In this document: piece by piece, positions 11,548-61,621 of the stretch
Layout: each line of letters opens with the position of its first letter
How positions within the stretch are numbered: the stretch's first letter is position 1
Assembly: GCA_963739885.1 (NCBI GenBank)
Contig: CAVUCC010000001.1
Location: forward strand, 206,516 to 270,515
Source of the DNA: an uncultured Chloroflexia bacterium
GTDB taxonomy: Bacteria; Chloroflexota; Limnocylindria; Limnocylindrales; CSP1-4
DNA length: 64,000 nucleotides
Direction of reading: 5' to 3'
Notes under the pieces: model-generated
What the model was told of the DNA's origin: nothing
The model's database searches: none
The model's input: only the letters and a program-made list of their open reading frames with translations
Program-made: the position numbers and the translations under genes

Positions 11548-11578
11548 CGCGGGTTCTCCGTCGTCCGTCCCGGCCGGC

Positions 11579-25982: not shown

Positions 25983-27527
25983 TCAGCGGTTGCCGGGGAA
26001 CACCAGGCTCAGGGTCGCCCGCTTGCCGGGCTCGGGCCAGCGGATGGTGACCTCCTTCTGGCGAGTGAAGAAGCGAAGGCCGTCCTCGCCGCGCAACGGC
26101 AGGTCTCCGAGCGCGGACTCCTTCGCGCCGCCGAAGCTGAGATAGCCGGCCGGGACGGGGATCGGCACGTTGACGCCGACCATCGGGACCTCTGACTCGA
26201 GCTGGAACCGCCGCGCGGCGCCGCCGTCGGTGGTGAAGATCGCGGTCCCGTTGGCGTACTGGTGGGAGTTCACGAGGTTGATGGCCTCGTCGTACGTGTC
26301 CACGCGGACCACGCCCAGCACCGGACCGAAGATCTCCTGGTTGTAGATGTCCATGGTCGGCTGCACGTGATCGAACAGGGACACGCCGAGGAAGAACCCG
26401 TCGGGGTTGTCGGGATGGACGAACGGGCGACCGTCGACCACCAGCTCGGCACCCTCCTCGACCCCACGGTCGATCCACTTGATCACCGACTCGCGGTGCT
26501 CGCGGGTGTAGATCGGGCCCATGTCCACGCCGGGCTCCATCCCGTCGCCGACCTTCAGGTTTGCGATCCGCTCGAGGATCATCGGGCGCAGCTTGTCGGC
26601 CACACCGCCCACGGCCACCAGCAGAGTCTGGGCCATGCACCGCTCACCGGCCGAGCCGTAGCCGGCCGCCACGGCACTGTCGGCCGCGAGGTCGAGGTCG
26701 GTATCGGGCAGCACGACCATCATGTTCTTGGCGCTGGTGAATGCGCCGACGCGCTTGCCGCGCTTGGTGCCCTCCTCGTAGACGTACCGGCCGACCTTGG
26801 TCGAGCCGACGAACTGGATCGCCTTGACATCGGGGTGCTCGACGAGGGCGGCGACCGCCTCGCGGCCGCCGTACACGACGTTGAGGACACCCTCCGGCAA
26901 CCCCGCCTCCGCCCACAGCTCGGCCTGGAGCTGGGTTGCGCCCGGGGTGTGCGACGAGGGCTTGAGGATCATGGTGTTGCCGGCCGCGAGCGCGATCGGC
27001 AGGATCCACATCGGGACCATGACCGGAAAGTTGAACGGCGTGATGGCCGCGGTGACACCCAGCGGCTGGCGCAGCGTCACGGCGTCCACGTTGGTGGCGA
27101 CGTTGGGCGTGTTCATGCCCGCGAGGTGGACCGGCAGGCCGCACGCGTACTCGACCGTCTCGATACCGCGGGTCACGCCGGCCAGCGCATCGGGGAACGT
27201 CTTGCCGTGGTCGCGGGTCACCAGCTCCGCAAGCTCCTTGCGGTGCTTCCAGGCAAGCTCGCGGAAGGCGAAGAAGATCTGGCTGCGGGCGATGAGCGGC
27301 ATGTCACGCCAGGCGGGGAACGCGGCCTTGGCGCTGGCGACCGCACGGTCGACCTCGGGCTGGCCGCCGCGCGGGACGCGCGCGATGACCTCGCCGGTCG
27401 CCGGGTTGTAGACCGGCCCGGCGTGCTCGGGGAGAACCTCGACGGGACGATTGTCGATCCAATGGGACAGAACCGGAACGGGCGCGGTCTGGGTCGCCTG
27501 TTCCTTCGGGCGGGACTCTGTGGTCAC
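25983..27527 (-). CDS. mmsA: CoA-acylating methylmalonate-semialdehyde dehydrogenase
   Basis: 514-aa aldehyde dehydrogenase family protein with motifs FTSAKNMMVVLPD, GERCMA and YANGTAIFT characteristic of MmsA. Confidence 0.85.
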   Translation of the reverse strand: MTTESRPKEQATQTAPVPVLSHWIDNRPVEVLPEHAGPVYNPATGEVIARVPRGGQPEVDRAVASAKAAFPAWRDMPLIARSQIFFAFRELAWKHRKELAELVTRDHGKTFPDALAGVTRGIETVEYACGLPVHLAGMNTPNVATNVDAVTLRQPLGVTAAITPFNFPVMVPMWILPIALAAGNTMILKPSSHTPGATQLQAELWAEAGLPEGVLNVVYGGREAVAALVEHPDVKAIQFVGSTKVGRYVYEEGTKRGKRVGAFTSAKNMMVVLPDTDLDLAADSAVAAGYGSAGERCMAQTLLVAVGGVADKLRPMILERIANLKVGDGMEPGVDMGPIYTREHRESVIKWIDRGVEEGAELVVDGRPFVHPDNPDGFFLGVSLFDHVQPTMDIYNQEIFGPVLGVVRVDTYDEAINLVNSHQYANGTAIFTTDGGAARRFQLESEVPMVGVNVPIPVPAGYLSFGGAKESALGDLPLRGEDGLRFFTRQKEVTIRWPEPGKRATLSLVFPGNR

Positions 27528-27789: not shown

Positions 27790-28917
27790 GTGGCCGACCT
27801 GTCCACCGTGTTCACGGGCATCCGGTTCGAGAACCCGTTCCTGCTCGCATCCGCGCCACCGACCGAGTCCGAGTCCAACATCATGCGGGCCTTCGAGGCC
27901 GGGTGGGGAGGGGTCGTCACCAAGACCATCGGCCTGCATCCCGTCGTCAACGTCGCCGGACCCAAGACCAAGTTCCTGCGCGCCGACGCTGGCGGCTCCC
28001 GGCTGTCGATGGCCAAGCGCCCCGACACGACCCTCATGGCGTCGTGGAACTGGGAGCTGATCTCCGACAAGCCGATGGACTGGTGGCTGCCGAAGCTGGC
28101 ATCGATCAAGCGCGTCTGGCCCAACCGCGTCCTCGTCGCCTCGATCATGGCCGGGTCGGGCACCGACAAGGAGCTCGACAACTGGCAGACGCTGGTCGAG
28201 GGCGTCCAGGACGCGGGCGTCGATGCGATCGAGCTCAACTTCTCGTGCCCGCACATGGACCGGATCGACATGGGCTCGAACGTAGGCAAGGACCCCGTCC
28301 TGTGCTCGGTGTCCACGCAGGCGGTCAAGGCCGTGGCAAGGGTCCCCGTATGGGTCAAGCTGACGCCGGCGACCGCGAACATCGTGGAGGAGGCCGAGGC
28401 CACGTTCCGCGGTGGTGCCGACGCCATCACCTCGTCCAACACCTTCCCGTCGCTGCCGCTGTTCGATCCGCTGACGCTCGAGCCCGAGGTCAACGTCGAC
28501 GGGATGGTCTCTGCCGGCGGGCTGGGCGGGCCGGCGATCCTGCTCCTATCACTGGCCAAGATGGCCGAGATGACGGAGGCGTTCCCGGATCGCGCCTTCT
28601 CGGGAATCGGCGGAGTCTCGACCTTCGAGCACGCGCTCAACTACTTCCTGCTGGGTTGCGGGACCGTACAGGTGGCCACGGCCGCAATGCTCGACCATGC
28701 CATCGGGCCGAACGTGATCCGCAGGCTGACCACGGGCCTGGAGGAGTTCCTCGACCGCAACGCCGATCGCGGTTGGACCTCGCTCGAGGACTTCCGCGGC
28801 ATCCGGCGCGGGCGCGTCGTCTCCCAGTCGTCGATCCGGCGCCCGGACGCGGCCGGCTACCACGGCGGCTACGAGGACGAGGCCGAGGGCTACGCGCCCG
28901 ATCCCGTCAAGGTCTGA
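27790..28917 (+). CDS. preA: dihydropyrimidine/dihydroorotate dehydrogenase-family flavoprotein (PreA-like catalytic domain, lacking the C-terminal 4Fe-4S domains)
   Basis: GTG start. FENPFLLASAPPT, NFSCPH and the DHODH-like TIM-barrel motifs (SSNTFPSLPLFD, GIGGVSTFEHALNYFLLG). No Cys-cluster tail. Confidence 0.75.
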   Translation: MADLSTVFTGIRFENPFLLASAPPTESESNIMRAFEAGWGGVVTKTIGLHPVVNVAGPKTKFLRADAGGSRLSMAKRPDTTLMASWNWELISDKPMDWWLPKLASIKRVWPNRVLVASIMAGSGTDKELDNWQTLVEGVQDAGVDAIELNFSCPHMDRIDMGSNVGKDPVLCSVSTQAVKAVARVPVWVKLTPATANIVEEAEATFRGGADAITSSNTFPSLPLFDPLTLEPEVNVDGMVSAGGLGGPAILLLSLAKMAEMTEAFPDRAFSGIGGVSTFEHALNYFLLGCGTVQVATAAMLDHAIGPNVIRRLTTGLEEFLDRNADRGWTSLEDFRGIRRGRVVSQSSIRRPDAAGYHGGYEDEAEGYAPDPVKV

Positions 28918-28948: not shown

Positions 28949-28977
28949 GCGGCCCCGGAGCAGGGCTCCGGGGCCGC
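28949..28977 (+). terminator. intrinsic terminator hairpin after preA, copy 1 of a repeated palindrome
   Basis: gcggccccggagc-agg-gctccggggccgc, a perfect 13-bp stem, followed by tgcgtttcgc. Confidence 0.6.
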
Positions 28978-29490
28978 TGCGTTTCGCTCGCCCGCCGTCC
29001 GGGCGGATCGCCCCGGTCTCCGCGCAGGCACACCGGCTGACCGGCAGCCGTCGTCGATCGGGCGGCGGCCGCCGGTGGTTCGAGCATCCGCTGACCTGGC
29101 ATCCGTCTCCGTCGCCAGATATGACGCCCGGGTTCAGTTCGCCGGCCGCTATGGCGCCCCGCGCGGAACGCACGAACGCGGGATCGCCGCGAACGCGGAG
29201 CCCGGACGCGGGCATTCCATCCCTGGCCCCGGCTCGCATCCGTGGAGCTATCCCGGCGAAGTCACGCGCCGTCGAGCAACGCGACGATCACCCGGAAACC
29301 TGGATGAAGCGAGCGAGCGCCAAGGGCTCGTGGCAGTCACGGAGACAGGGTGGCGCGGCCTCACGGGACGGTCCGTCGGCTGCGCGAGCGAAAGGGGCAC
29401 CGATCGCCCGCGCGACGAACGCCGTACGAGCTTTCGGTGTGGGTGGCCGGAGCCGCGCACCCCGATGGTCGAGAAGGCCCGGAGCTGTGC

Positions 29491-32400
29491 TCAGTTCCGG
29501 TGGATCGTCACCTCCCCCTGCACATCGCCCGACGCCTTGTAGATGGGCTCGTCTAGGTCTGGATCCGCGCCTGCCGCCCAGATCCTGATGATGAACCGGT
29601 CTGGCTGCGAGCCACCTCGCGTGTCGCCGTCCCTGGCATCGACGCGGAACGGGTAGTCGCCTGGTGCCCCGTCGATCGTCGCCAGCCCCTGGAACCGCGC
29701 CCAGTTCGAGTTGGTCACGACGAGCCAATCAAACCCACCCGCGGTCAGCTGGAAGCTCCCCACGTTGTAGTGGAAGGTCAGGTTGCCGCCCGGAACGGAA
29801 GACGACCCGTTCTTGTACTTGACGACGAACCCGAAGTTGGCGTGCGAGGTTCCGTCGATCCCGGGCAGCAGGTCACCTCCGTCGGAGGTGCTGCCGCCGG
29901 GCACGATCCAGCCACCGCCGGTCGCGAACCCACCACTCGGGTCGTAGACGACGACGTACCGGAAGGCTGCGCTCGCCGACTGGCCGCTTGGGTCGACCAC
30001 CTCAACCGAGGCGGTGTAGACGCCCGGTTGCGCATAGACGTGATCCCCGGTCGCGGCCGTCGTGCCCGATGCCGGGTCGATCTCGATCGACCCGGTGGAG
30101 GTCACACCGTCCCCCCAGTCGACGGTCACCACGTGGTCGTCGAGCGTCCCCGCATCCGCCACCGGTGCTTGCACGGTCGCCGTGGTGCCGACCGGCAGCG
30201 GCCCATCGGGACCGGTGGCCGGGCCCAGGACCGGACCCGGAACCCCGACGATCCACTCGCTCGCCTCGGAGGTGAGCACGACGAGCTGGATGTCGCCGTC
30301 GGGGAGCAGCGCTCGGTCGAACACGCAGGGATCGGGCGACGCCTGACCGGAGGCATCGTTGCAGTCGACGACCGCCACACCGTTGCGGAACACGACGACG
30401 GTCGACGGGTCGTCGCCCATGGGCACGGTGCTGGCATCAATGCGGAACAAGAGCTGCAGCGGGTCGGCCGCCGTCGCGGCCGGGGCAGAGATCGTGACCA
30501 CCTGGCCCAGGATGCCGTAGCCGTCCGGTGGCGGACCGCCGGTCCCGGTAGCGTCGATCGAGACCGTCCCGGCGACCGGGGTCGTGACGCCGGCGACGAC
30601 CGGGTCCGACGGGGTGGCGCCCGAGCCCGTGTCCGTAGTCATGGTCCCGCCGGCCGGCACGGAGCCCGTCGGGTTTGGCCCGCCCGGCTCGATCCTGAGC
30701 GCCACGTCGCGAGTGAAATCCGGCAGCGGGATCGTTAGCGTGCCGCCGCTGGCCGTCGCGACGAACGGCGCCTGCCACGTCCCGGCGCCATACGGATCGA
30801 ACACGCCGACCAGCCAGGTTCCGTCGCCGAAGCCCGACATCGCGATCGTCGCGCCCGAGATGACGCGACCGGCCAGGTCACCCGGTCTTGACCCCGTCCC
30901 GTAGGCATTCTGGGCGTCGCGGACCCACGCGTAGCCAACCGAGCCGTTGTCCAGCCCGAGCGCGATGACGGCGGCCGGGGCGCTGATCGTGGAGTCGTGG
31001 AGCCCGAGCGCCGCCGGGTCCTGTCCGGCGAAGAACGTCTGCAGGGCCGGGAAGACCTGCTCGTACACCGGGAATCCCGGCGCGGTGCGGTGCTCGGTCG
31101 GGTTGGAGAAGAGGTACTCACCCCACCACCACGACATCGCGCCTGAGCGGGACATCGCCGCCGCCCAGGCCGCATTGTGCAGGTGTGTCCCCTCCTCGAG
31201 ATGCTCTCGCAGGTCCTGGGAGAGGGTGGAGGTCGTGGGGTCGAAGTGGCGCTCGGGATCCGACGCCAGCCCAAACTCGCCCACGATCACCGGCTTGCCG
31301 TATGCGGCCTGCAGGTCGCCGACCTCCTGGCGGAGCCGCGTGTCCTGGGTGGCCGAGGCACCGTAGTCGTGCACCTGCACCAGGTTGATGTTGGGGTCGG
31401 TCCAGATGCCGTCGAGGGAGCTGTCGGGCGCCGCGCTGGTGGTGATCAGGTGGTGGTACGGATCGATGCTCTCGAGGTACGCGGCCATCTCCTGGTGCCA
31501 GGCGGCGATGGCGTCGCGCACGGCGGCGTTGTTGCCCGGATTGACCGCGTCGGTGCCCACGGACTGGACCTCGTTGAACAGCTCCCAGGCAAGGACGTTG
31601 CGGAACGCGCCGTAGCGGGCGACGAGGTAGCGCAGCCGCTGCTTGAACAGGCGCTTCGCCTCCGGATTGGTGAAGAAGTCGGTGGGCGTGGCCGCCGGCA
31701 CGGGGCCGCCGTGGGCAGTGCTGTAAGGGTTGTCGGCCCAGCGTCCATCCACGTAGGTGCTGAATTGGCCGTGGTCGTTGAGCACCAGCTGCACCTGGAG
31801 CCCGTGCTCGTCGGCGAGCTCGAGCGCCTGGTCGATGCGGAACGCCGAGACCTGCGAGTATTGGCCGACGCCCGTGTACAGCCCGGACCAGTGGTTGGTC
31901 GACCACTCGAGCGCGTCGCGATTGAAGTCGGTCATCCAGACCCGCGTCCAGTTCTCGCCGGCCGTCTCCATCGAGGCGAACAATGGGTCGAAGTAGTGAC
32001 CGCCGTCGGCGTCGGGATTGCCGTCCTGAAAGGCGACGTCGTTCCCCATCGGGACGTACGGCGTGCCGTCCTCGTACCGGAGCATCAGCGGGTCTGTCGG
32101 GTCCTCGCCCACCTCGCCATGTGTGCTGGGCGAGGTGGCATCGAAGCTGAGCGGGACGGAGACGACCGTCGCCACAGAGGGCGGGATCTTGTCCTCGGCG
32201 CGAAGGGTGTACGTGTACGTGCCCACCTCGTCTGGCGAGAACCGGACGCGCCAGACGCCAGGTCGCGGCGGGCTCATCGGCACCGGATCGTAGATCTCGC
32301 TGCTCCCCACCCCGGTGCCGGCCCGGACCGTGTAGTCGACCGTCCAGTAGGCCGGCACGCTGATCTGGGTACCGCTCGGAGCGGTGAACGTTGCGCTGAC

Positions 32401-34137
32401 GTCGATCCGGCGGGAATCGAAGACGTCGAGGTTGTAGTAGCGGCTCAGGTTGAACGTCTTCTCGAAGAGGCCGTACTTCTGCACGCTCGCGGCTGCTGGG
32501 ACCGAGGTGTCGATCGTGAGCGGCGTCACGTACTCGAAGTCGAACGCGGAGCCGGCGATCGGAGACGATGCGGTGAGTGTCTGGTCCCAGCAGACCGAGT
32601 CATGGAGGTACCAGTCGGTGGGGATCCCAACGACGCACGCGGTGTAGGTTGCGTCGAGGTCGAGCGGCGACAGCGACACGATCCCCGGATCGGAGTCCTG
32701 GTCGTTCGCGTCGCCGTCCGTCACGGTGAGCGAGTAGCCGTTGGTGCCGGTGACGCTGTAGGTCACGCCGTCGAGCGTGCCGCCCTGCACACGCAGCGCG
32801 GTCATCGAGAGGGTGCCGCTCGAGGGCGTCGGGCTCGGTCCCCCGCCACCGGAGGGCTGGGAGGTGATGGCGACGTCGCCGGCTTGGAGCGGGTCGCCGG
32901 GGAGGGTCTGCGCACCGAGGCAGCCGAACGGCTCGATCGTGTCGTACGCGTTGACCTCTACGGTGTCGCCGGCTCCCGCGAGGCCGCCGTCCACGAGGAA
33001 GATGGTGGCGTATCCGTAGCTGGTCCCGCCGTACGGCCAGTCGCCGCGCCCGATGAGCATCGCCGTCGAGCCCCGGATGTCGAGGCACACGACGTCGCCC
33101 GAAAGCGAGAAGCCCTGGCTCTCGCTGACCGAGAAGGTGCCGCTGACCGTGCCCGACTCATCACGCGTGGCGTCGACGTCGAGCGTCCGCGTGTACCCGG
33201 AGCCGAGGTCGGTCTGCGCACCGTCGACGACCACGTGGCCCGTGTCCGAGGTCCCGGTTCGGATCGTGATCTGGCCGTCGGCGATCGAGGTCTCGCCGGG
33301 ATCGGCGGCGCCGCAGTCGGGCGGCGCCATGTTGGTCGGACCATCGAACGCGATCGTGTCCGGGTTGCCGTCGAGGTCGCCGTCGGTCGCCCAGATCGTC
33401 ACGTACAGCGGGCCGTAGCCGACGTCGGGTGCGGCTCCGCCCAGCACGAACGAGGACCCATTGACCACGAGGCAGGTCACATCGCCGCTCGCGGAGCTCC
33501 CGAAGGGCGGGTAGATCGCGAACGTGCCCGAGATCGTCCCGCTGCCGTCGTCAACGGCGGCAAACCGGAACGATCCGAAGGAGCCCCCGAGGTTGACGTC
33601 ACCGTCGCCCACCACGCTGACCGGTGCTCCGCTCCCCGAGCCGCTCCCGATCGAGATCGAGATGTCGCCGCCGACGAGGGGCAGGACGCTGGAGCTCGGC
33701 GACCCGGCGCAGTCCGCGGGGCCGCCCGGGGTCGGTCCGTCCACTCCGATGGTGTCGGTCGTGGCCGTGAGGGCGCCGTCGGTCACGAACAGCTCGACGT
33801 ATTCCGTGCCGTAGGAGGCGTCGAATCCGCTGCCACCGATCACCGCGGTGTTGCCGCTCACCACAAGGCAGGTGACGGAACCGCTGAGCGGCGCGGGACC
33901 ACCAACGTCGAAGGTCCCCGACACGTTGCCGGCACCGTCGTCCGTCGCCGTGAACGAGAACGAGAGGTAGCCGTCGAGCATGCCTGTGCCAGGTCCGTTG
34001 GGCTCGACCTCGCCGGATCCGGTGATCGTGACGGGTGAGGCAGCCATCGCGTGCGGCGTGAGCGCCCAGGAGCCCAGCACCAGCGTGACCACGCCAAGGA
34101 GAATCCAGAGACCGCTCCACTGGGACGCCCGACGCAT
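29491..34137 (-). CDS. giant secreted multidomain protein: signal peptide, 3 copies of a novel ~130-aa repeat, DUF5060-like beta-sandwich, GH5-family TIM-barrel glycoside hydrolase, Ig-like region, PKD domain and a 4th repeat copy
   Basis: SD GGGAGG plus ATG at 34137. Signal peptide MRRASQWSGLWILLGVVTLVLGSWALTPHAMAA. GH5 catalytic motifs LAWELFNEVQ (acid/base) and PVIVGEFG (nucleophile). PKD motif VDWGDGVTSTG...HVYAQPGVYTASVEV. The repeats share ...DDG(A/S)G.(V/I)SGTF....G.V.CL.V.G... The 4.6-kb frame is uninterrupted. Confidence 0.85.
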   Translation of the reverse strand: MRRASQWSGLWILLGVVTLVLGSWALTPHAMAASPVTITGSGEVEPNGPGTGMLDGYLSFSFTATDDGAGNVSGTFDVGGPAPLSGSVTCLVVSGNTAVIGGSGFDASYGTEYVELFVTDGALTATTDTIGVDGPTPGGPADCAGSPSSSVLPLVGGDISISIGSGSGSGAPVSVVGDGDVNLGGSFGSFRFAAVDDGSGTISGTFAIYPPFGSSASGDVTCLVVNGSSFVLGGAAPDVGYGPLYVTIWATDGDLDGNPDTIAFDGPTNMAPPDCGAADPGETSIADGQITIRTGTSDTGHVVVDGAQTDLGSGYTRTLDVDATRDESGTVSGTFSVSESQGFSLSGDVVCLDIRGSTAMLIGRGDWPYGGTSYGYATIFLVDGGLAGAGDTVEVNAYDTIEPFGCLGAQTLPGDPLQAGDVAITSQPSGGGGPSPTPSSGTLSMTALRVQGGTLDGVTYSVTGTNGYSLTVTDGDANDQDSDPGIVSLSPLDLDATYTACVVGIPTDWYLHDSVCWDQTLTASSPIAGSAFDFEYVTPLTIDTSVPAAASVQKYGLFEKTFNLSRYYNLDVFDSRRIDVSATFTAPSGTQISVPAYWTVDYTVRAGTGVGSSEIYDPVPMSPPRPGVWRVRFSPDEVGTYTYTLRAEDKIPPSVATVVSVPLSFDATSPSTHGEVGEDPTDPLMLRYEDGTPYVPMGNDVAFQDGNPDADGGHYFDPLFASMETAGENWTRVWMTDFNRDALEWSTNHWSGLYTGVGQYSQVSAFRIDQALELADEHGLQVQLVLNDHGQFSTYVDGRWADNPYSTAHGGPVPAATPTDFFTNPEAKRLFKQRLRYLVARYGAFRNVLAWELFNEVQSVGTDAVNPGNNAAVRDAIAAWHQEMAAYLESIDPYHHLITTSAAPDSSLDGIWTDPNINLVQVHDYGASATQDTRLRQEVGDLQAAYGKPVIVGEFGLASDPERHFDPTTSTLSQDLREHLEEGTHLHNAAWAAAMSRSGAMSWWWGEYLFSNPTEHRTAPGFPVYEQVFPALQTFFAGQDPAALGLHDSTISAPAAVIALGLDNGSVGYAWVRDAQNAYGTGSRPGDLAGRVISGATIAMSGFGDGTWLVGVFDPYGAGTWQAPFVATASGGTLTIPLPDFTRDVALRIEPGGPNPTGSVPAGGTMTTDTGSGATPSDPVVAGVTTPVAGTVSIDATGTGGPPPDGYGILGQVVTISAPAATAADPLQLLFRIDASTVPMGDDPSTVVVFRNGVAVVDCNDASGQASPDPCVFDRALLPDGDIQLVVLTSEASEWIVGVPGPVLGPATGPDGPLPVGTTATVQAPVADAGTLDDHVVTVDWGDGVTSTGSIEIDPASGTTAATGDHVYAQPGVYTASVEVVDPSGQSASAAFRYVVVYDPSGGFATGGGWIVPGGSTSDGGDLLPGIDGTSHANFGFVVKYKNGSSSVPGGNLTFHYNVGSFQLTAGGFDWLVVTNSNWARFQGLATIDGAPGDYPFRVDARDGDTRGGSQPDRFIIRIWAAGADPDLDEPIYKASGDVQGEVTIHRN

Positions 34138-34552
34138 CGATCCCTCCCGGAGCCGGCCCGCAAGCCGGCTCGGCGAACGTCGAGGCCGGGCTCGCCATTG
34201 GCTCGACGCGGGGCGGTTGGGCGACCGTGGGACACCCCGCGCGTCGACGCTGCCTCGACGGATGCCCGTTTCTACTCGCCCGAGGACCGTCGCGTCAACC
34301 CCTCGTCCGGCCGCCGATCGCCTCGATCTTGGCTCGCGACGGCATCCCCGAACTCGATCGCCCGCCCTCAAGGCTAAATCGTGGTGGTGACCGGACGCAC
34401 CGGGAACGGAATCGGCGACGCCTCGCGGCACGGGCTCGACGCTGCCCTCTCTTCCCGCGGTGAGTTGTCGCACTCCGGGGACCCCGCGCCGAACGAGCGG
34501 CACCGCAGGCGGGCCGCTCAACCGGGCCGTGGCGCATGCGCTCGGACACGAA

Positions 34553-34582
34553 GCGGCCCCGGAGCCCTGGCTCCGGGGCCGC
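34553..34582. terminator. hairpin after dihydropyrimidinase, copy 2 of the repeated palindrome
   Basis: gcggccccggagcc-ct-ggctccggggccgc, nearly identical to the hairpin at 28949-28977. Confidence 0.55.
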
Positions 34583-34599: not shown

Positions 34600-35988
34600 T
34601 CAGCGCAGGAACGCGCTGCGCTCCCGCTTGATGAACCTGCCGTCGCCCGCCTGGCCCAGCCACTGGCCGTTCTCGACCACGACTTTGCCGTGCGACATGA
34701 CCACGTCCGAGCCGCCCTGTACGACCTTGCCCTCGTAGCAGCTGTAGTCGACGTCCATGTGGTGCGTCTTGGCGCTGAGCGTGTGCTTGCGGTTCGGGTC
34801 GTACACCAGCAGGTCAGCGTCGTAGCCGACGGCAACGGCGCCCTTGTGGGTGAGGCCGAAGATCCTGGCCGCCGCGGTCGAGGTGATCTCGACGAACCGG
34901 TTGGGCGTGATCCGCCCGGCGACAACGCCGCCGTCGTGGATCAGGTCGACCCGCTCCTCGACCCCGGGGACCCCGTTCGGGATCTTGCGGAAGTCCCCCC
35001 GGCCCATCTCCTTCTGGCCGTGGAAGTCGAACGGGCAATGGTCGGTTCCAACCAGGGAGAGGTTGCCCCTGACCAGGCCCTTCCAGAGCTCCTCCTGGTG
35101 CCCGGCGCTGCGGTCCCGCATCGGCGGCGAGCACACGAACTTGGCACCCTCGAAACCGTTGCGCAGGTCGTCGAGCGACAGGAACAGGTACTGCGGGCAG
35201 GTCTCGGCGAACGCCGGCAGGCCGTCGTTCTGCGCGGCGCGGAGGACGTTGAGCGCCTCCTTCGCCGACATGTGGACGAAGTACACCGGCGCCTTGGCCG
35301 CCTGGGCAAGCCGGATCACCCGGTTGGTCGCCTCGCCCTCGAAGATGGAGTAGCGAGCCAGCCCGTGACCGATCGGGTCGGTGGTGCCCTGCTCGACGAG
35401 CTCGGCCGCGACGACATCGATCACGGGGCCGTTCTCGGCGTGCATCAGGACCATGCCGCCGTTCCTGGCGGTCTGCTTGAGCGCCTTGAAGATCGCGTCG
35501 TCGCCGCTCAGGAACACTCCCGGGTAGGCCGTGAACAGCTTGAACGTGGTGACGCCCTCGTCGACCAGCTCGTCCATCTCGGACAGCAGGTCGTCCCGCA
35601 TGTCGGACACGATCACGTGGAACGCGTAGTCGATGCAGGCCTTGCCGTCGGCCTTCTCGTGCCACGTGGCCAGACCGTCCCGGAACGACCCGCCACGCGG
35701 CTGGACCGCGAAGTCGATGATCGTCGTGGTGCCACCGAAGGCCGCAGCCCGGGTGCCGGTCTCGAAGGTGTCCTTGGCGAAGGTGCCGCCGAACGGCAGC
35801 TCCATGTGGGTGTGCGGGTCGATCCCGCCGGGGATCACCCACTTGCCGGTCGCGTCGATCGTGCGGTCGGCAGGGACGTCGAGCCTCTCGCCGATCATCG
35901 CGATCCGCTCGCCGTCGACGAGGACATCGCCCTTGGTGGTGGCGTCGGCGTTGACGATCGTTCCGCCCTTGAACAGCGTGCGCATCAT
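34600..35988 (-). CDS. hydA: dihydropyrimidinase (D-hydantoinase)
   Basis: GGIDPHTHM, a lysine-carboxylation region and VGTDHCPF motifs of the cyclic amidohydrolase family. 462 aa. Confidence 0.85.
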   Translation of the reverse strand: MMRTLFKGGTIVNADATTKGDVLVDGERIAMIGERLDVPADRTIDATGKWVIPGGIDPHTHMELPFGGTFAKDTFETGTRAAAFGGTTTIIDFAVQPRGGSFRDGLATWHEKADGKACIDYAFHVIVSDMRDDLLSEMDELVDEGVTTFKLFTAYPGVFLSGDDAIFKALKQTARNGGMVLMHAENGPVIDVVAAELVEQGTTDPIGHGLARYSIFEGEATNRVIRLAQAAKAPVYFVHMSAKEALNVLRAAQNDGLPAFAETCPQYLFLSLDDLRNGFEGAKFVCSPPMRDRSAGHQEELWKGLVRGNLSLVGTDHCPFDFHGQKEMGRGDFRKIPNGVPGVEERVDLIHDGGVVAGRITPNRFVEITSTAAARIFGLTHKGAVAVGYDADLLVYDPNRKHTLSAKTHHMDVDYSCYEGKVVQGGSDVVMSHGKVVVENGQWLGQAGDGRFIKRERSAFLR

Positions 35989-36056: not shown

Positions 36057-36908
36057 TCAGGGCTTGATGAGGTCACCGTACATCTCGGGCCGGCGATCGC
36101 GGTAGAACTGCCAGGTCTGGCGGACCTTGCTGACCAGGTCCAGATCGAGATCGCGCACGATGAGCTCCTCGTCGCGGGGGGAGCCCACGGCGCCCACGAA
36201 CTGGCCCAGCGGGTCGCAGAAGTAGCTCTGGCCGTAGAAGTCGTCGTCGCCGATGTCGGCCTCGATGCCAACCCGGTTGATGGTGCCCACGAAGTAGCCG
36301 TTGGCGAGCGAGTGGGACACCTGCTCCACCCGCCACAGGTACTCCGAGAGGCCCCGGCTGGTGGCGCTCGGGATGAGCACGATCTCGGCGCCGTTGAGAC
36401 CCAGCGCCCGGGCGCCTTCCGGGAAGTGGCGGTCGTAGCAGATGTACACGCCCACCTTGCCCACCGCGGTCTGGAACACCGGGTAGCCGAGGTTGCCCGG
36501 GCGGAAGTAGAACTTCTCCCAGAACCCGGCCACGTGCGGGATGTGGGTCTTGCGGTACTTGCCCAGGTAGGTGCCGTCGGCATCGATCACGGCCGCGGTG
36601 TTGTAGTAGATGCCCGAGGTCTGGCTGTCCTCCTCGTACATCGGGACCACCAGCACCATGCCGGTCTCTTTGGCCAGCGCACACATCCGGGCGGTCGTGG
36701 GCCCGTCGGGGATCAGCTCGGTGTAGCTGTAGTAGGTCTTGTCCTGGACCTGGCAGAAGTAGGGGCCGTAGAACAGCTCCTGGAACAGCATCAGCTGGGC
36801 GCCGGCCTTGGCCGCCTCGTGCGCATAGCCCTCGTGCTTCTGGATCATCGACTCCTTGTCGCCGGTCCAGGTCGCCTGCAGGAGCGCGCCACGGACGATA
36901 CGGGGCAT
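36057..36908 (-). CDS. beta-ureidopropionase / N-carbamoyl-amidohydrolase of the nitrilase (CN-hydrolase) superfamily
   Basis: Catalytic E-K-C triad context (LMLFQELF, RKTHIP, ICYDRHFPE). SD GGAGG upstream of the ATG at 36908. Confidence 0.8.
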   Translation of the reverse strand: MPRIVRGALLQATWTGDKESMIQKHEGYAHEAAKAGAQLMLFQELFYGPYFCQVQDKTYYSYTELIPDGPTTARMCALAKETGMVLVVPMYEEDSQTSGIYYNTAAVIDADGTYLGKYRKTHIPHVAGFWEKFYFRPGNLGYPVFQTAVGKVGVYICYDRHFPEGARALGLNGAEIVLIPSATSRGLSEYLWRVEQVSHSLANGYFVGTINRVGIEADIGDDDFYGQSYFCDPLGQFVGAVGSPRDEELIVRDLDLDLVSKVRQTWQFYRDRRPEMYGDLIKP

Positions 36909-37132
36909 CGGGGACCTCCACATCGGAAAAGCCGGGGACCATGCGGCCGCCCGCCAACTGGACCATAGACTCGTCCGAGAGGCACTGGGTCGCATGAGCC
37001 GGAGGAAACGAAGGTTGGGGAATCGCGGCCCTGCTACCGGGCGCGGTCGTCCGGGCCCCGTTGGGCGTGACAGTCCCGAATGGGGTTGATCTTCGGGACG
37101 TCAGGCCCGTCTGTCGGGGGCCAGCCCGATGC

Positions 37133-37155: not shown

Positions 37156-37462
37156 GCCCAGTCGCCCGAGGACGCTGAACCCGCCCATGGTGAATGCGCG
37201 CGACCGGCTGATCCCTGCCTTCGCGACTCGCCCCGACCGACGGTCGAGGGGGCCGCTTGGGAGCCCGTCCCCCTGCGCCGTCACCCGCGCCCCGATGGAC
37301 AGGTCCAGCTGATGTCCCGTTCGGTCCCCACGCTCCAGCGACCGTCCCGCAAGCCGGTAGCCCTACCGGCTGATCCTGACCGGTCGCCAGGGCGTGCCGT
37401 CCTAGGCCGTCGCCAGGCCATCGGTGCGCGGCACCGTCAGACCCCATAGCGGAGGAGGGTTC

Positions 37463-39085
37463 ATGGCAGGGGTAGCACAGGAGCAGATCGTCCGTCCGGA
37501 CGGTCGAGTCGAGCTCGATCCGGCCGTCGATGCGGCCCTGGACGCCTCGGCGCTGCACAACGAGGACCTGGCCCCGGTTCCGATCGCCAAGCGGACCTGG
37601 ACCACCTACAACTACCTGGCCCTGTGGATCGGGATGTCGCACAACATCCCCACCTGGGGCCTGGCCGCTGGCCTGGTCGCGCTCGGGATGGCCTGGTACC
37701 AGGCGATCTTCACGATCATGCTCGCCAACATCATCGTCCTTGCCCCGATGCTGCTGAACAGCCACGCCGGGACGAAGTACGGCATCCCCTACCCGGTGTT
37801 CGCCCGGGCCTCGTTCGGGGTCTACGGGGCCAACCTGGCGGCGCTGCTCCGTGCGGGCATTGCCTGCGGCTGGTTCGGGATCCAGACGTGGATCGGCGGC
37901 GAAGCCGTGTGGACGGTCATCGGGGCGATCTTTGGCGCGAACTCGTGGTGGCTCACCGCCGACAAGCTCCAGATCGGCTTCGGCAATGCGCAGCCGTGGA
38001 CGCTGTGGCTGAGCTTCGCCATCTTCTGGCTCCTCCAGATCTCGATCATCTACCGGGGCATGGACGCCGTGCGCCGGTTCGAGAACTGGGCAGCCCCGTT
38101 CGTCCTGGTCGTCGCGTTCTTCCTGCTCATCTGGATGTGGGCCCAGGCCGGCGGCCTCGGCGACCTCATCCAGGACAACGGCACCCTGGGCTGGGGCAGC
38201 AACTTCTGGCTGATCTTCTTCCCGTCGCTGATGGGCATGATCGCCTTCTGGTCGACGCTGTCTCTGAACATGCCCGACTTCACCCGGTTCGGAAGGAGCC
38301 AGCGGAGCCAGGCGATCGGCCAGACCCTCGGCCTGCCGACCACGATGACGCTGTTCCCGCTCATCGCGGTGCTCGTCACGTCGGCGACCAAGACCGTCTA
38401 CGGCGAGTACATCTGGGATCCCGTCGCCCTGGTCGGCAAGTTCAACCAGAACGGCAGCATCCTCGAGATCCTCGTCGTGATCCTGGCGCTGGTCACGCTG
38501 AGCGTCGCGACCCTCTCGGTCAACGTCGCCGCGAACACGGTCAGCCCGTCCTACGACTTCTCGAATGCCTGGCCGAAGCGGATCTCGTTCCGCACCGGCA
38601 GCATCATCACCGGCGTCCTCGGGATCCTCATCCAGCCCTGGCTGCTGTACCAGGACCCGCACGTGTACATCTTCACCTGGCTGGGCTTCTACGGCGGCGC
38701 CACCGGCGCCATCGCCGGCGTGCTCATCGCCGACTACTGGCTGATCCGTCGGACGAACCTGAATCTGGCCGACCTGTACCGACCGTCCGGCATCTACCGG
38801 TACGTGAGCGGCTGGAACTGGCGGGCGGTGGTCGCGCTGCTGGTCGGCATGTTCGTCGCGTTGGGCGGCGCCTACTCGGCGACCAACGCCGACGGCTCGG
38901 CCAGCGGCCCGTTCCCGCCCGGCGGGATCTTGGGCTTCCTGCACGTCCAGCTGCCCTGGGGCGGCTACCTGTACGACTACAGCTGGGTTCTGGGCCTGAT
39001 CGTGTCGTTCGTCCTCTACTGGGTGTTCACGCGCTTCGTGCCGCAGCGCGAAGCGACACCGACCGGCGCGGCGCAGCCGGCCTGA
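37463..39085 (+). CDS. NCS1-family nucleobase (uracil/cytosine/allantoin-type) permease
   Basis: 12-TM protein with NCS1 motifs (WIGMSHNIPTW, GNPFGLYG-like regions). Strong SD GGAGGAGGG before the ATG. Confidence 0.85.
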   Translation: MAGVAQEQIVRPDGRVELDPAVDAALDASALHNEDLAPVPIAKRTWTTYNYLALWIGMSHNIPTWGLAAGLVALGMAWYQAIFTIMLANIIVLAPMLLNSHAGTKYGIPYPVFARASFGVYGANLAALLRAGIACGWFGIQTWIGGEAVWTVIGAIFGANSWWLTADKLQIGFGNAQPWTLWLSFAIFWLLQISIIYRGMDAVRRFENWAAPFVLVVAFFLLIWMWAQAGGLGDLIQDNGTLGWGSNFWLIFFPSLMGMIAFWSTLSLNMPDFTRFGRSQRSQAIGQTLGLPTTMTLFPLIAVLVTSATKTVYGEYIWDPVALVGKFNQNGSILEILVVILALVTLSVATLSVNVAANTVSPSYDFSNAWPKRISFRTGSIITGVLGILIQPWLLYQDPHVYIFTWLGFYGGATGAIAGVLIADYWLIRRTNLNLADLYRPSGIYRYVSGWNWRAVVALLVGMFVALGGAYSATNADGSASGPFPPGGILGFLHVQLPWGGYLYDYSWVLGLIVSFVLYWVFTRFVPQREATPTGAAQPA

Positions 39086-39130
39086 GTCAACGGACCGGGC
39101 TCCGCCCGGATTTCCACGCGTCGCACGAGC

Positions 39131-39156
39131 GAGGCCCCTCCGCCCGGAGGGGCCTC
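39131..39156. terminator. bidirectional terminator-like hairpin between the convergent NCS1 permease and hypE
   Basis: gaggcccctccg-cc-cggaggggcctc, a perfect 12-bp stem. Confidence 0.5.
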
Positions 39157-39205
39157 GCCGATTGCCTGAGTCATGTCGCCACACGACCGCACAGGTCAGG
39201 GGCGA

Positions 39206-40285
39206 TCAGCAGATCCGGGGCAGCTGCTCCCCCACCAGCATGTCGACGATCCGCTCACTGCCGACGAGGGTGCGGATCGTGACCATGCCCGGATGGTCCG
39301 CCACCACCTCGCCGATCCGGGCCGCCTCGGCACCCTCGGGGAGCGCCCGCATCGCCGCCAGCACCGCCTCGGCAGACACGGCCGGCACGATCGCCACCAG
39401 CTTGCCTTCGTTGGCCACGTGGAGCGGGTCCAGGCCCAGGAACTCGCAAGCGGCGCGGACCGGCCCCGGGATCGGGATCGCCGGCTCGTCGAGCACCATG
39501 CCGACCCGCGAGGTCCCGGCGATCTCGTTGAGCGCCGACGACAGGCCGCCGCGGGTGGGGTCGCGAAGCACGTGGACGTCCGGCTCCACCGCCAGGATCG
39601 CCGAGACCAGCCCGTTGAGCGCCTGGGTGTCCGACGCGATCTCGACCTCGAACTCGAGACCCTCACGAACGCTCATGATGGCGACCCCGTGGAGCCCGAT
39701 GGGGCCCGACACGATGACCGCGTCGCCCGGCTGCGCCCGGTCCGCGGCGGGCGCGACGCCCTCGGGCACCACGCCGATGCCGGCGGTGTTGACGAACAGC
39801 CGGTCGGCCGCACCGCGTCCGACGACCTTGGTGTCCCCGGTGACGATCCGCGCGCCGGCCCGCGAGGCCGCCTCCGCCGCGGAGACCGTGATGAGCCGAA
39901 GCTCCTCGAGCGGCAGGCCCTCCTCGATCACGTAGGCAAGGCTGATCGCCAGCGGCTGCGCACCCATCATCGCGAGGTCATTGAGGGTGCCGTTGACCGC
40001 GAGCTCGCCGATGTCGCCACCCGGGAACCGGATCGGCGACACCACGAACGAGTCGGTGGTGAACGCAAGCCGGCCGGCCGGCACGTCGACTACGGCGGCA
40101 TCGTTGAGCGGACCGCCGGGCGAGGCCGTGCCGAGCGCAGGTGCCAGGACGTCGCGCATCAGGGCGTTCGACAGCTGGCCACCCGAGCCGTGGCCCAGGA
40201 TCACCCGCTGGTCCTCGGGGATGGGCGCCGGGCAGGCGATGCCCTCGGCGTCGATCGTGACCCGGGGCTCGTCTGACGTGGTCAT
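39206..40285 (-). CDS. hypE: [NiFe]-hydrogenase maturation protein HypE
   Basis: AIR-synthase-like fold with a HypE C-terminal ...PRIC motif. ATGA overlap with hypD. Confidence 0.9.
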
Positions 40286-41460
40286 CGCGCCGCCTCCTGG
40301 GGGGAGGATGCCACGGACGGGGACGAGGGCACGGGCACCAGCGGCAGGGCGCCGCTGAAGCCGCCCGTTGCGGCCAGGCCGCGGCCCGCGGCGTAGAACG
40401 CCGCGCACGTCCCCTCGGAGCTGACCATGGGCGCCCCCAGCGGCTGCTGCGGCGAGCACAGCGTCCCGTAGGCGGTGCATTCGAGCGGCGTCCGCTCGCC
40501 GGTGAGGATGGCGCCCGCGATGCAGGCCGGGTGCTCGTTGGTCCGGATGTCGCCCACCTCGAACCTGGTCTCCGCATCGAACCGCGCGTACTCGGGCCGC
40601 AACCGGTAGCCGGACATCGGGATCTCGCCCACGCCGCGCCACTTGCGGTGGCCGACCTCGAACACCTTGAGCACCTGCTGTTGCGCGGCGGGCACACCCT
40701 CGCGGGTCACCGCCCGCGTGTACTGGTTCTCGACCTCGAACCGCCCCTCCTCGAGCTGGCGGATCGCCATCAGGATGCCCTCGAGCAGGTCGAGCGGCTC
40801 GAACCCGGTGACCACGATCGGGACCCGGTACTTCGCGGCGATCGGCTCGTACTCGGTCCAGCCCATGATCGCGCAGACATGACCAGCGGCCAGGAACGAC
40901 TGGACCTGGTTGGTCGGCGAGTCGAGCAGGGCGGTCATCGCGGGTGGGACGAGGACGTGCGAGACGAGGACGCTGAAGTTGTCGATCCCGCGCCGGGCAG
41001 CCTCCGCCACGGCCATCGCGTTGGCGGGCGCGGTGGTCTCGAAGCCGACCGCGAAGAACACGACCTGGCGGTCGGGGTTGGCAAGCGCGATCTTCAGTGA
41101 ATCGAGCGGGCTGTACACGATCCGGACATCGGCGCCGCGGGCCTTGAGGGCAAGCAGGTCCGTGGTCGAGCCGGGCACGCGCAGCATGTCGCCGTAGCTG
41201 GTGAAGATGACGTCGGGCCGGGCCGCGATCGCCAGTGCCTTGTCCACCTGCTCGAGCGGCGTGACGCAGACGGGGCAGCCGGGACCGTGGATCATCCGGA
41301 CGCCCTCGGGCAGCGCCTCGTCGATCCCCTGCTTGACGATCGTGTGCGTCTGGCCGCCGCAGACCTCCATCATCGTCCACGGCCGGGTCGTGATCCGATG
41401 GATCTCGGTCAGCAATTTGCGGGCGAGCACGGGGTCGCGGTACTCGTCGAGGTACTTCAT
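40282..41460 (-). CDS. hypD: [NiFe]-hydrogenase maturation protein HypD
   Basis: [13 protein letters not shown] and FAVGFETT motifs. Confidence 0.9.
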
Positions 41461-61554: not shown

Positions 61555-61621
61555 GGGCTCCTGGTTGCGAGCGCGGGGGACGCCGGCTCGGCCGGCGTCC
61601 CCCGCTTGATGGAGATAGGCG

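Follow-up and report, generated by a model that had tools for sequence, protein, structure and literature searches.

A 5,575-nt segment (positions 28978-34552) was probably gained in the lineage of this species in the spacer between preA and hydA, a recurrent insertion hotspot, where it forms a self-contained cargo with the terminator palindrome of the spacer doubled around it. The window, that is, the whole 64-kb stretch of DNA analysed here, comes from a soil Chloroflexota bacterium (Limnocylindria-like, with a genome of 70% GC). The locus is a clear but fairly ordinary example of a gene gained at a slot of rapid genomic turnover. It offers a nucleotide-resolved case in which a large, independently regulated gene has been added with its neighbours undisturbed and both of them keeping a putative terminator.

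The insertion lies between two convergent transcription units

The features of the locus are as follows.

25983-27527, minus strand: mmsA, CoA-acylating methylmalonate-semialdehyde dehydrogenase (TIGR01722, 615 bits, above cutoff; Aldedh)
27790-28917, plus strand: preA-like dihydropyrimidine dehydrogenase subunit (PF01180; NF006183 PreA, 303 bits)
28949-28977: hairpin P, one copy of the putative palindromic terminator, 31 nt beyond the stop codon of preA
28978-29490: 3' spacer of the cargo, non-coding, 513 nt, without frame-specific GC3 signal
29491-34137, minus strand: cargo gene, secreted multidomain protein of 1,548 aa
34299-34552: spacer from hairpin H to the putative cargo promoter, non-coding, 254 nt
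34553-34582: hairpin H, the other copy of this palindrome, 17 nt beyond the stop codon of hydA
34600-35988, minus strand: hydA, dihydropyrimidinase (TIGR02033, 556 bits, above cutoff)
36057-36995, minus strand: CN-hydrolase, same strand as hydA and upstream of it (PF00795)
37424-39085, plus strand: NCS1 nucleobase:cation symporter (TIGR00800, 412 bits, above cutoff)

The cargo gene is the only gene between the two palindromes. The first-pass annotation had recognized a pathway cluster of mmsA, preA, dihydropyrimidinase, beta-ureidopropionase and an NCS1 permease. Profile matches agreed with these identities; the CN-hydrolase is probably the beta-ureidopropionase, judged from its context (its best NCBIfam match is below cutoff). 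The preA-like protein consists of the DHO_dh domain only, without the C-terminal ferredoxin domain, and its NF006183 score of 303 bits, below the cutoff of 335, covers profile positions 1-328 of 422. Its orthologues in relatives are 85-91% identical. The same annotation had placed the giant gene inside an operon, which did not hold: the strands along the cluster are mixed (-,+,[-],-,-,+, with the giant gene in brackets) and there are several separate units. mmsA is divergent from preA, whereas preA (plus strand) and hydA (minus strand), the left and right conserved flanks of the slot, converge, and the giant gene sits at their convergence point. Such a gap between convergent units is the least disruptive place for an insertion. 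Independent assemblies from other samples (L001, L084, L087, L089 and L106) have the same arrangement, which is therefore no misassembly.

Two hairpins with identical stems bracket the cargo

Hairpin P reads GCGGCCCCGGAGC-AGG-GCTCCGGGGCCGC (29 nt) and hairpin H reads GCGGCCCCGGAGC-CCTG-GCTCCGGGGCCGC (30 nt). Their 13-bp stems are identical to each other; that of P extends to 14 bp when 28948/28978 is counted. The two near-identical 29-nt hairpins described at first pass as bracketing the gene are thus present, except that the second is 30 nt long. Exact matches to the 13-mer arm in the 64-kb window are confined to the four arms of P and H, the next best match being a lone arm with one mismatch. 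Besides P and H, the window has only two perfect hairpins with a stem of at least 13 bp (39129-39158 and 61573-61605), and these are unrelated in sequence. From this census, the identity of P and H reflects neither chance nor a ubiquitous motif. Beyond the window, a scan of 241 million metagenome records returned the exact palindrome in contigs of this organism at the slot only; the 19 other exact matches came from unrelated organisms with unrelated flanks.

The folding energies of P and H are -42.6 and -40.0 kcal/mol (z about -4.3, both strands). Each is a stable, GC-rich stem-loop just past one of the two converging stop codons, as in an intrinsic terminator. The tails UGCGUUUC and UUCGUGUC contain only 4 U in 8 and fall short of a U-rich tract, and a consensus terminator scan did not flag either hairpin. 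Weak U-tracts are common in high-GC genomes. At 70% GC, they weaken the assignment to the canonical terminator class rather than the functional reading. Compared with known bidirectional intrinsic (Rho-independent) terminators, the likeness lies in a perfect GC-rich stem-loop 16-31 nt past both stops; the differences are the weak U-tracts (4/8) and the presence of two copies, each apparently now serving one flanking gene. Elsewhere in the window, the convergent genes NCS1 and hypE have a single common 13-bp hairpin, and a single hairpin between convergent genes appears to be the default layout.

With the loops and 8 insert-side nucleotides included, the inverted match between P and H (38 nt at 92%) was better than the direct match (31 nt at 90%), a result not expected from a simple direct duplication of the target. 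The insert-side 8 nt themselves are weakly inverted (TTCGTGTC and TGCGTTTC, 6/8), and the loops and flanks are too short to discriminate between direct and inverted duplication.

The non-coding flanks of the cargo (513 nt and 415 nt) showed no coding signal in a frame plot, no similarity to the slots of relatives by BLAST and no match to the cargo proteins of relatives by tblastn, and Rfam found only the riboswitch described below. By these tests, remnants of mobile elements or of an earlier cargo were ruled out. In a population variant (L109), positions 28961-29325 are deleted, starting inside hairpin P.

The slot is empty in basal relatives and variably filled in others

Using tblastn, we compared the window proteins with 42 related loci. 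The giant gene was absent beside hydA in all 42 and was present at the slot in 0 of 10 related Limnocylindria-like genomes; these relatives are MAGs, and an orthologue could conceivably be located elsewhere in their genomes. hydA and preA are convergent in L002, L005, L006, L007, L009, L010, L011 and L041. In two of these, L011 and L041, the genes are directly adjacent, with hydA-preA spacers of 77 and 84 nt and one hairpin each. The lineage-specific insertion proposed at first pass is borne out by these empty sites and by the absence from 10 of 10 relatives, and gene order including the giant gene is not conserved across the clade. Both L011 and L041 branch basally in the hydA tree.

The palindrome is orthologous to the single hairpin of relatives. 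The hairpin of L011, CGAGGAGCCCCGGAGC-GAT-GCTCCGGGGCTCCTCG, lies 16 and 26 nt from the two stop codons, matching H (17 nt) and P (31 nt). Hairpin P together with its preA-side flank aligns to this single hairpin (80% over 66 nt), and hairpin H aligns to that of L007. Orthologous hairpins occur at the slot position in L004, L007, L011 and L041, and the stem keeps its position with compensatory changes across species (GCGGCCCCGGAGC, GCGACCCCGGAGC, GCGGCCCGGGAGC and GGAGCCCCGGAGC). The reuse of a terminator module, one of the two origins suggested in the first-pass annotation, fits a hairpin that is orthologous to the single putative bidirectional terminator of relatives and equal to it in its distances to both stops.

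Other relatives carry different DNA in the slot: heliorhodopsin in L006, a lysyl-oxidase-like protein and a small secreted protein in L007, the same NAD-binding/DUF2867 cargo in L008 and L009, and tandem-repeat arrays in L002. Each cargo is unique to one genome, except that of L008/L009; cargo differs between sister genomes, and nothing similar to the insert of the window or to its flanks was found in the slots of relatives. The slot is a hypervariable, recurrent hotspot between convergent genes.

It could be argued that the giant gene is ancestral and was lost repeatedly, for example by recombination between the hairpins leaving one. We consider this very unlikely. In its favour, the cargo has native codon usage and GC, recombination between the identical 29-nt repeats would produce a site with just one hairpin (cf. 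L011 and L041), and the L109 deletion begins inside hairpin P. However, in at least five relatives the slot is neither empty nor left with remnants but holds another, unrelated cargo, these slots show no similarity to the insert or its flanks, and the single-hairpin genomes are basal. Furthermore, a search of 5.8 billion proteins returned no orthologue above 54% identity beyond the same strain.

An empty-site allele within the same species was not found by exact HydA and PreA look-ups and a palindrome scan: all same-species contigs (97.5-99.8% identical) either carry the insertion or end at the hairpin. The gain of the segment was reconstructed only from species at least 9% diverged in hydA.

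The target is duplicated around the cargo in three genomes

In L007, direct repeats of 31 and 17 nt, 100% identical and taking in the final 9 nt of hydA, flank the cargo; the palindrome is precisely what the second copy of the repeat lacks. The sister L002 has two similar hairpins in the slot, AGGGGCCCGGGGC and AGAGGCCCCGGGGC, unlike the window pair in sequence. In 760 kb of the clade we counted 58 perfect hairpins (stem at least 11 bp), and only three similar pairs occurred within a locus: at the window slot, at the same slot in L002 and as a 68-nt tandem duplicate in L037. The target is duplicated around cargo in three genomes (window, L002 and L007), over 29-30, 30-32 and 46-75 nt, respectively.

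Identical stems could also arise if preA and hydA had each possessed a terminator of its own, the stems being homogenized by gene conversion or by selection; hairpin identity would then be uninformative on the arrival of the cargo. The L002 pair, with similarity greater within than between genomes, is typical of concerted evolution, and the 13-bp stem serves as a terminator in 19 unrelated organisms, as if it were an "easy" sequence. Against such conversion or convergence, which we regard as unlikely, the identical repeats of L007 reach non-palindromic flanks and the coding end of hydA and represent a true duplication, basal relatives have only one hairpin for both genes, and the other strong hairpins of the window are wholly different in sequence.

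Duplication at the palindrome is the reading that we favour. The ancestral spacer of 77-84 nt would have contained one long GC-rich palindrome acting as a bidirectional intrinsic terminator. The duplication most likely arose by slippage or template switching at this palindrome, a route hinted at by the target duplications that flank cargo in two relatives. The terminator segment may have undergone a small tandem duplication, DNA then being captured between the copies; alternatively, a single switch-out/switch-back replication event may have re-copied the target. After the event, hairpin P would still terminate the preA transcript and probably also the cargo transcript from the opposite side, and hairpin H would terminate the hydA/CN-hydrolase transcript and insulate the cargo promoter from hydA read-through. 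The target duplications in three species at one slot, along with the tandem terminator duplicate elsewhere, offer a clue to the origin of hotspots that lack mobile elements: palindrome-driven slippage or template switching may create them.

A broader reading, which we hold to be rather unlikely, is that terminator palindromes act as landing pads in this clade, promoter-bearing units being inserted by a replication- or enzyme-based process that re-copies the palindrome (29-75 nt). If so, this would be an undescribed gene-cassette integration free of mobility genes, with three instances at the slot (window, L002 and L007), and all transcription units would retain an intact terminator after the event.

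Mobile elements and known systems

Among GC3-supported ORFs of the 64-kb window, there was no RAYT, Y1 or other transposase, IntI or other integrase, or any other recombinase. The first-pass annotation had also suggested insertion via a REP-like element. This was not upheld, with two copies of the palindrome in 64 kb, a single locus in the metagenome scan and none of these enzymes in the window. REP elements were ruled out by a mismatch search of the window and the exact-pattern scan of metagenome contigs, so that copy number was judged from these rather than from a complete genome; the palindrome is not ubiquitous, as this organism's contigs carry it only at the slot. An integron attC site was rejected: the stems are perfect, nearly all G+C and without a GTTRRRY core, and the window has no tyrosine recombinase. 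An IS200/IS605-type element or PATE was rejected as well, the empty sites of L011 and L041 keeping the orthologous hairpin and TnpA being absent from the window.

Taken as a class, a mobile palindrome or hairpin-ended element (REP/MITE-like, IS200/IS605-type PATE or attC cassette) mobilized in trans would account for near-identical palindromes around a single-gene unit and for the weak inversion of the insert-side 8 nt. It is nevertheless highly improbable. The hairpin is kept at the empty site, so that one copy or more is part of the target rather than of the element. The palindrome is confined to two copies in 64 kb, with no more from this organism in the metagenome scan; the stems have no extrahelical bases; and homologues of the cargo gene elsewhere lie in ordinary contexts, not flanked by hairpins in the manner of P and H.

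Hotspots of horizontal transfer without mobile elements have been described between conserved core genes (Oliveira, Touchon & Rocha 2017, PMC5635113). The present interval resembles them: it is bounded by conserved genes (hydA and preA), holds differing accessory genes with rapid turnover between sister genomes, and has no recognizable mobility genes, integrase and transposase included. It differs in that the slot is defined at the nucleotide level by a terminator palindrome, and the target is duplicated around cargo in three genomes, which homologous-recombination replacement in the flanks does not predict. REP elements and the insertion sequences that target them (PMC1525189; PMC3184786) are alike in being GC-rich extragenic palindromes of ~30 nt at 3' ends and in making palindromes preferred insertion targets. 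In contrast to these, the hairpins here are not repetitive as far as visible and have no IS in or beside them, no RAYT was found in the window, and the inserted DNA is no IS but a structural gene under regulation. Cas1-type integrases duplicate whole repeats, as in CRISPR repeats and casposon target duplications (PMC5137440). The analogy is a formal one, in that a palindromic unit of ~30 nt is doubled in full around new DNA; here, however, there is no Cas1, casposase or CRISPR array, and the 5.6-kb cargo has no terminal inverted repeats. The duplicated length in L007 is different (46-75 nt) and extends into hydA coding sequence, which argues against a measured, enzyme-defined stagger.

The cargo encodes a giant secreted GH5 protein

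As described at first pass, the cargo encodes a 1,548-aa secreted protein with repeats, GH5 and PKD, to which we add DUF5060. It comprises a signal peptide (MRRASQWSGLWILLGVVTLVLGSWALTPHAMA|A), three N-terminal repeats of ~130 aa, DUF5060 (PF16586, 42.4 bits), GH5 (PF00150, 43.8 bits; cutoff 23.5), PKD and a C-terminal module. The DUF5060 and GH5 catalytic core spans aa ~551-1012, the region to which the DUF5060 protein of PDB 9gmj aligns (aa 551-1012, E 6.5e-44); a literature search on the function of the 9gmj protein returned nothing usable. The motifs LFNEVQ (NE) and VIVGEFG (GEF) would provide the two catalytic glutamates, in keeping with the GH5 family. The closest full-length homologues are 52-54% identical and stand in unrelated genomic contexts.

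The predicted deviation in GC and codon usage is absent from the GC profile, GC3 and RSCU distance. By these measures the gene is indistinguishable from the host and among its most host-like genes, and nothing in its composition points to a foreign origin. It may have moved within the genome or have been acquired long ago.

The cargo has its own 5' leader with a riboswitch

The elements of the leader, from the start codon outwards, are the following.

34142-34148, minus strand: Shine-Dalgarno GGGAGGG, 4 nt upstream of the ATG at 34137, as read from the sequence
34150-34171, minus strand: 8-bp hairpin GAGCCGGC-UUGCGG-GCCGGCUC, between aptamer and Shine-Dalgarno
34175-34263, minus strand: c-di-GMP-II-GCG riboswitch aptamer (Rfam RF03170) in the cargo 5' leader
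34269-34298, minus strand: promoter-like site (TTGACG-N18-TAGAAA), 5 nt upstream of the aptamer, likewise a sequence reading

The aptamer matches RF03170 over the full model (1-85/85) with 68.1 bits (gathering 47.9; E 2e-10), and the conserved blocks CGGUCGCC and GAGCcAgUGGCGAGCCCG are present. It lies 38 nt before the start codon of the cargo, on the coding strand, and the order aptamer, hairpin, Shine-Dalgarno, ATG on the sense strand is that of a 5' leader. The 8-bp hairpin is a candidate expression platform. The strong Shine-Dalgarno noted at first pass was confirmed (GGGAGGG at 34148-34142), whereas the riboswitch had gone unnoticed there. TTGACG-N18-TAGAAA may be the cargo promoter; a consensus promoter scan of this 70% GC region gave nothing useful, and it missed the site because the last base of the -10 is A.

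The cargo is thus an autonomous unit of a promoter-like site, a riboswitch, a Shine-Dalgarno, the gene and a 3' spacer. As a self-contained unit with a riboswitch, it would have its expression set by a cyclic-dinucleotide (lifestyle or biofilm-type) signal, not by pyrimidine catabolism. Large secreted proteins are a gene type commonly controlled by c-di-GMP riboswitches. The presence of a c-di-GMP-II-GCG riboswitch before the gene for a giant secreted GH5 exoprotein in Limnocylindria, a little-studied group, suggests that these soil bacteria place an extracellular function in polysaccharide processing under cyclic-dinucleotide control.

The GCG variant RF03170 is listed with the c-di-GMP classes (PMC12452182); its ligand was not found in the literature searched. 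The full-length model match and the position in the leader of a large secreted protein agree with the c-di-GMP-II family, whereas the Limnocylindria-like Chloroflexota host and the closest gene homologues without the riboswitch set this case apart. RF03170 was found neither in the slots of relatives nor upstream of the homologues P0002, P0003 and P0005, which rules out a riboswitch travelling with the gene family. At this locus, the aptamer is borne by near-identical strains only.

An insertion at the convergence point of hydA and preA

The giant gene is the sole gene between two hairpins, P on the preA side and H on the hydA side. The features of this region are as follows.

25983–27527, minus strand, mmsA
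27790–28917, plus strand, preA-like gene
28949–28977, hairpin P, GCGGCCCCGGAGC-AGG-GCTCCGGGGCCGC, 31 nt past the preA stop codon
29491–34137, minus strand, giant gene, 1,548 aa
34553–34582, hairpin H, GCGGCCCCGGAGC-CCTG-GCTCCGGGGCCGC, 30 nt long, 17 nt past the hydA stop codon
34600–35988, minus strand, hydA
36057–36995, minus strand, CN-hydrolase gene
37424–39085, plus strand, NCS1 permease gene
about 39209–40372, minus strand, hypE

The pathway genes named in the first-pass annotation (mmsA, preA-like, hydA, CN-hydrolase and NCS1) were confirmed. Their proposed organization as one operon was not: preA converges with the CN-hydrolase/hydA unit, and the giant gene, which shares the strand of hydA, occupies the precise point where they converge. 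The same arrangement was present in five independent assemblies (L001, L084, L087, L089 and L106), which excludes misassembly at the repeat.

The PreA-like protein covers positions 1–328 of the 422-position profile, lacks the C-terminal 4Fe-4S ferredoxin domain and scored 303, under the PreA equivalog cutoff of 335. A PreT-like partner was likewise not seen in the pyrimidine cluster, so the proposed pathway may rely on another electron-transfer partner at its first step.

The slot in related genomes

A HydA scan of species-representative genomes yielded 80 loci, the closest of which came from Chloroflexota MAGs labelled Chloroflexia or Candidatus Limnocylindria (HydA identity up to 95%). When all window proteins were compared with the relatives' loci by tblastn, ten relatives shared the neighbourhood hypF-hypD...NCS1, CN-hydrolase, hydA, preA, mmsA, hydrolase, MFS, and none of the ten carried the giant gene in the slot, that is, the hydA–preA spacer. 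This absence supports a lineage-specific insertion. The content of the slot varied from genome to genome.

Slot length and content in relatives, by locus
L011, 77 nt, one long hairpin
L041, 84 nt, one long hairpin
L005, about 265 nt, non-coding
L010, about 400 nt, non-coding
L002, about 0.95 kb, nearly all tandem-repeat arrays
L006, about 1 kb, heliorhodopsin gene (11530–12366, plus strand; PF18761, E 1e-78)
L007, about 1.8 kb, lysyl-oxidase-like gene and a gene for a small secreted protein
L008 and L009, about 1.9 kb, NAD-binding/DUF2867 gene

In a tree of hydA, the genomes with a single hairpin were basal, and the cargo differed between sister genomes. In two other close relatives the surroundings were altered, and the reductive branch partner has been lost. 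L003 (11384–11765) has lost preA, mmsA and the aldo-keto reductase gene, so that hydA abuts an alpha/beta hydrolase gene, and in L004 (11640–12779) preA is reduced to a frameshifted remnant. Judged from these two loci, some members of the clade are losing their pyrimidine cluster.

The giant gene and its leader

The encoded protein consists of a classical signal peptide, three N-terminal repeats of ~130 aa, a DUF5060 plus GH5 region and a PKD-containing C-terminal module. Its core matched the solved 'DUF5060 domain-containing protein' 9gmj (E 6.5e-44), and both GH5 glutamate motifs, NE and GEF, were found. The leader contains the following elements; apart from the aptamer, they were read directly from the sequence.

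34298–34269, minus strand, promoter-like TTGACG-N18-TAGAAA, stopping 5 nt upstream of the aptamer
34263–34175, coding strand of the giant gene (minus), c-di-GMP-II-GCG riboswitch aptamer (RF03170), full-length Rfam match
34171–34150, minus strand, 8-bp hairpin downstream of the aptamer
34148–34142, minus strand, SD GGGAGGG
34137, minus strand, ATG of the giant gene

At 68.1 bits (E 2e-10), the aptamer exceeds the gathering score of 47.9 and was the sole above-threshold Rfam match in the 64-kb window. Because the leader combines a promoter-like site, a predicted riboswitch, a hairpin, an SD and the ATG, the inserted DNA is predicted to be self-contained: it would form a whole transcription unit under its own regulation, unlike a cassette that lacks a promoter. 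On the other side of the gene, the 513 nt from its stop codon to hairpin P showed no coding signal and no similarity to any sequence compared.

The full-length homologues, P0002 and P0003, share no more than 52–54% identity with the giant protein and lie in unrelated contexts without the riboswitch, which was found neither upstream of the homologues (loci L082, L083 and L110) nor in the relatives' slots. Another genome encodes P0005, a 977-aa secreted protein (L110, 6001–8934). It is 43–45% identical to the giant protein across the N-terminal repeat module and 55% across the C-terminal PKD module, but has no DUF5060-GH5 core between them, which indicates that the giant protein is modular. By this comparison, the family looks like a modular scaffold that received a catalytic core.

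The giant gene did not deviate in composition, a check that the first-pass annotation had suggested, and was fully host-like in codon usage, GC and GC3. Thus, any donor would have resembled the host in composition; otherwise, the gene was relocated inside the lineage.

The paired hairpins as copies of a putative local terminator

Both flanking palindromes were present as first described, except that the copy at 34553–34582 measures 30 nt, one more than the 29 given for it. Their 13-nt arm was confined, within the 64-kb window, to the four arms of P and H. Perfect hairpins with a stem of at least 13 bp numbered four in the window (P, H, 39129–39158 and 61573–61605), and the latter two were unrelated in sequence to P and H. 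Coincidence and a ubiquitous motif are therefore both excluded as the source of the identity of P and H. Both fold strongly on either strand (about -40 to -43 kcal/mol, z about -4.3) and, from their distances to the preA and hydA stop codons, each is positioned as the terminator of one flanking gene. The hairpin at 39129–39158, GCGAGGCCCCTCC-gccc-GGAGGGGCCTCGC, is the only one between the convergent NCS1 permease and hypE genes and offers for comparison an undisturbed one-hairpin layout.

The hairpins of L011 (CGAGGAGCCCCGGAGC-GAT-GCTCCGGGGCTCCTCG), L004 and L007 are clearly orthologous to the window palindrome. Their stem changes are compensated, and the distances to both stop codons are as in the window. 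The preA-side flank of P also aligns to L011 (80% over 66 nt). By orthology and position, then, the palindrome is probably the local terminator, now in two copies.

An exact-pattern scan of a metagenome collection for the palindrome returned 21 stretches. Two of them (L087, sample Ga0307446, and L089, sample Ga0307440) were the same organism at 99.7–99.8% identity, and L087 has both copies, 5,604 nt apart. The remaining 19 had unrelated flanks and gene content, some with classic A-tract/T-tract terminator contexts; the stem thus appears to be a strong terminator sequence of a general kind with repeated independent origins, rather than a member of a dispersed family. With four arms in 64 kb, and one locus in the organism plus 19 unrelated stretches in the scan, the suggested REP-like element can be set aside. 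The giant gene is not embedded across the ten relatives, nor is the palindrome ubiquitous in the window or among the scanned contigs of this organism. Of the first-pass reading, insertion and terminator reuse stand, whereas the operon and the REP do not.

None of the compositionally supported ORFs in the window was identified as an integrase, a transposase or a RAYT. An integron cassette was rejected, the stems being perfect, almost wholly G+C and devoid of attC hallmarks. A hairpin-ended (IS200/IS605-type) element was likewise rejected: the empty site retains one hairpin, so P and H are not both element ends. Defining features of the three classes (REP, integron cassette and IS200/IS605-type element) were looked for in the window, the scan and the relatives' slots, and were absent there.

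Origin of the duplication

The sequence common to P and H is essentially limited to the palindrome, and the loops differ; the insert-side 8 nt agree slightly better when one copy is inverted. A live alternative to duplication of one terminator is gene conversion between two older ones. Other loci bear on a duplication. In L007, the 1.7-kb cargo is flanked by direct repeats at the hydA stop region (11375–11449 and 13117–13162) that are 100% identical and consist of two blocks, one of 31 nt that takes in the final 9 nt of hydA and one of 17 nt. The palindrome lies between the blocks in the first copy; in the second they abut, with the 27–29-nt palindrome exactly missing. This is the product that would be expected from synthesis across a folded single strand. 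The slot of L002, the closest relative of the window, contains two similar hairpins (11402–11431 and 12272–12303) that differ in sequence from the window pair; between them (11436–12234) lie several tandem-repeat arrays (periods 19, 24, 28, 36 and about 79 nt) and no gene. In L037 (5141–5276), immediately beyond the 3' end of a gene on the minus strand, a 68-nt tandem duplicate carries a 12-bp-stem terminator hairpin, GAAGCCGGCCCC-tcgc-GGGGCCGGCTTC. This shows a putative terminator duplication elsewhere in the clade. Across 760 kb of the clade, similar within-locus hairpin pairs occurred only in the window slot, the L002 slot and L037.

L007, L002 and L037 point to a terminator that would be prone to duplication, and we regard slippage or template switching at the palindrome as the likeliest cause. 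A small tandem duplication of the terminator may have been filled later by captured DNA, or a single event may have switched out and back. A staggered cut of the transposase type, which would give a fixed length, is less favoured.

Gene-gain hotspots between conserved genes and free of mobile elements have been described (Oliveira et al. 2017, PMC5635113). In function, the slot is of this type and adds a duplicated, putative bidirectional terminator and a riboswitch of a known class. A more novel reading, in which the terminators of convergent genes would serve as self-duplicating landing pads in this clade, is one that we consider improbable.

Finally, a Logan contig from sample SRR8556601 (L109, 2716–2805) matches the window identically up to the middle of hairpin P and then jumps to 29326. 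The 365-nt deletion (28961–29325) removes the right arm of P and most of the 3' spacer. It may be a genuine variant in the population or an assembly artefact caused by the palindrome; if real, the slot is still unstable. In one Logan sample, L107 ends at 29209 and L084 starts at 29185, a break with a 25-nt overlap in the non-coding 3' spacer. The break points to a branch in the assembly graph, and thus possibly to strain variation at 29185–29209.
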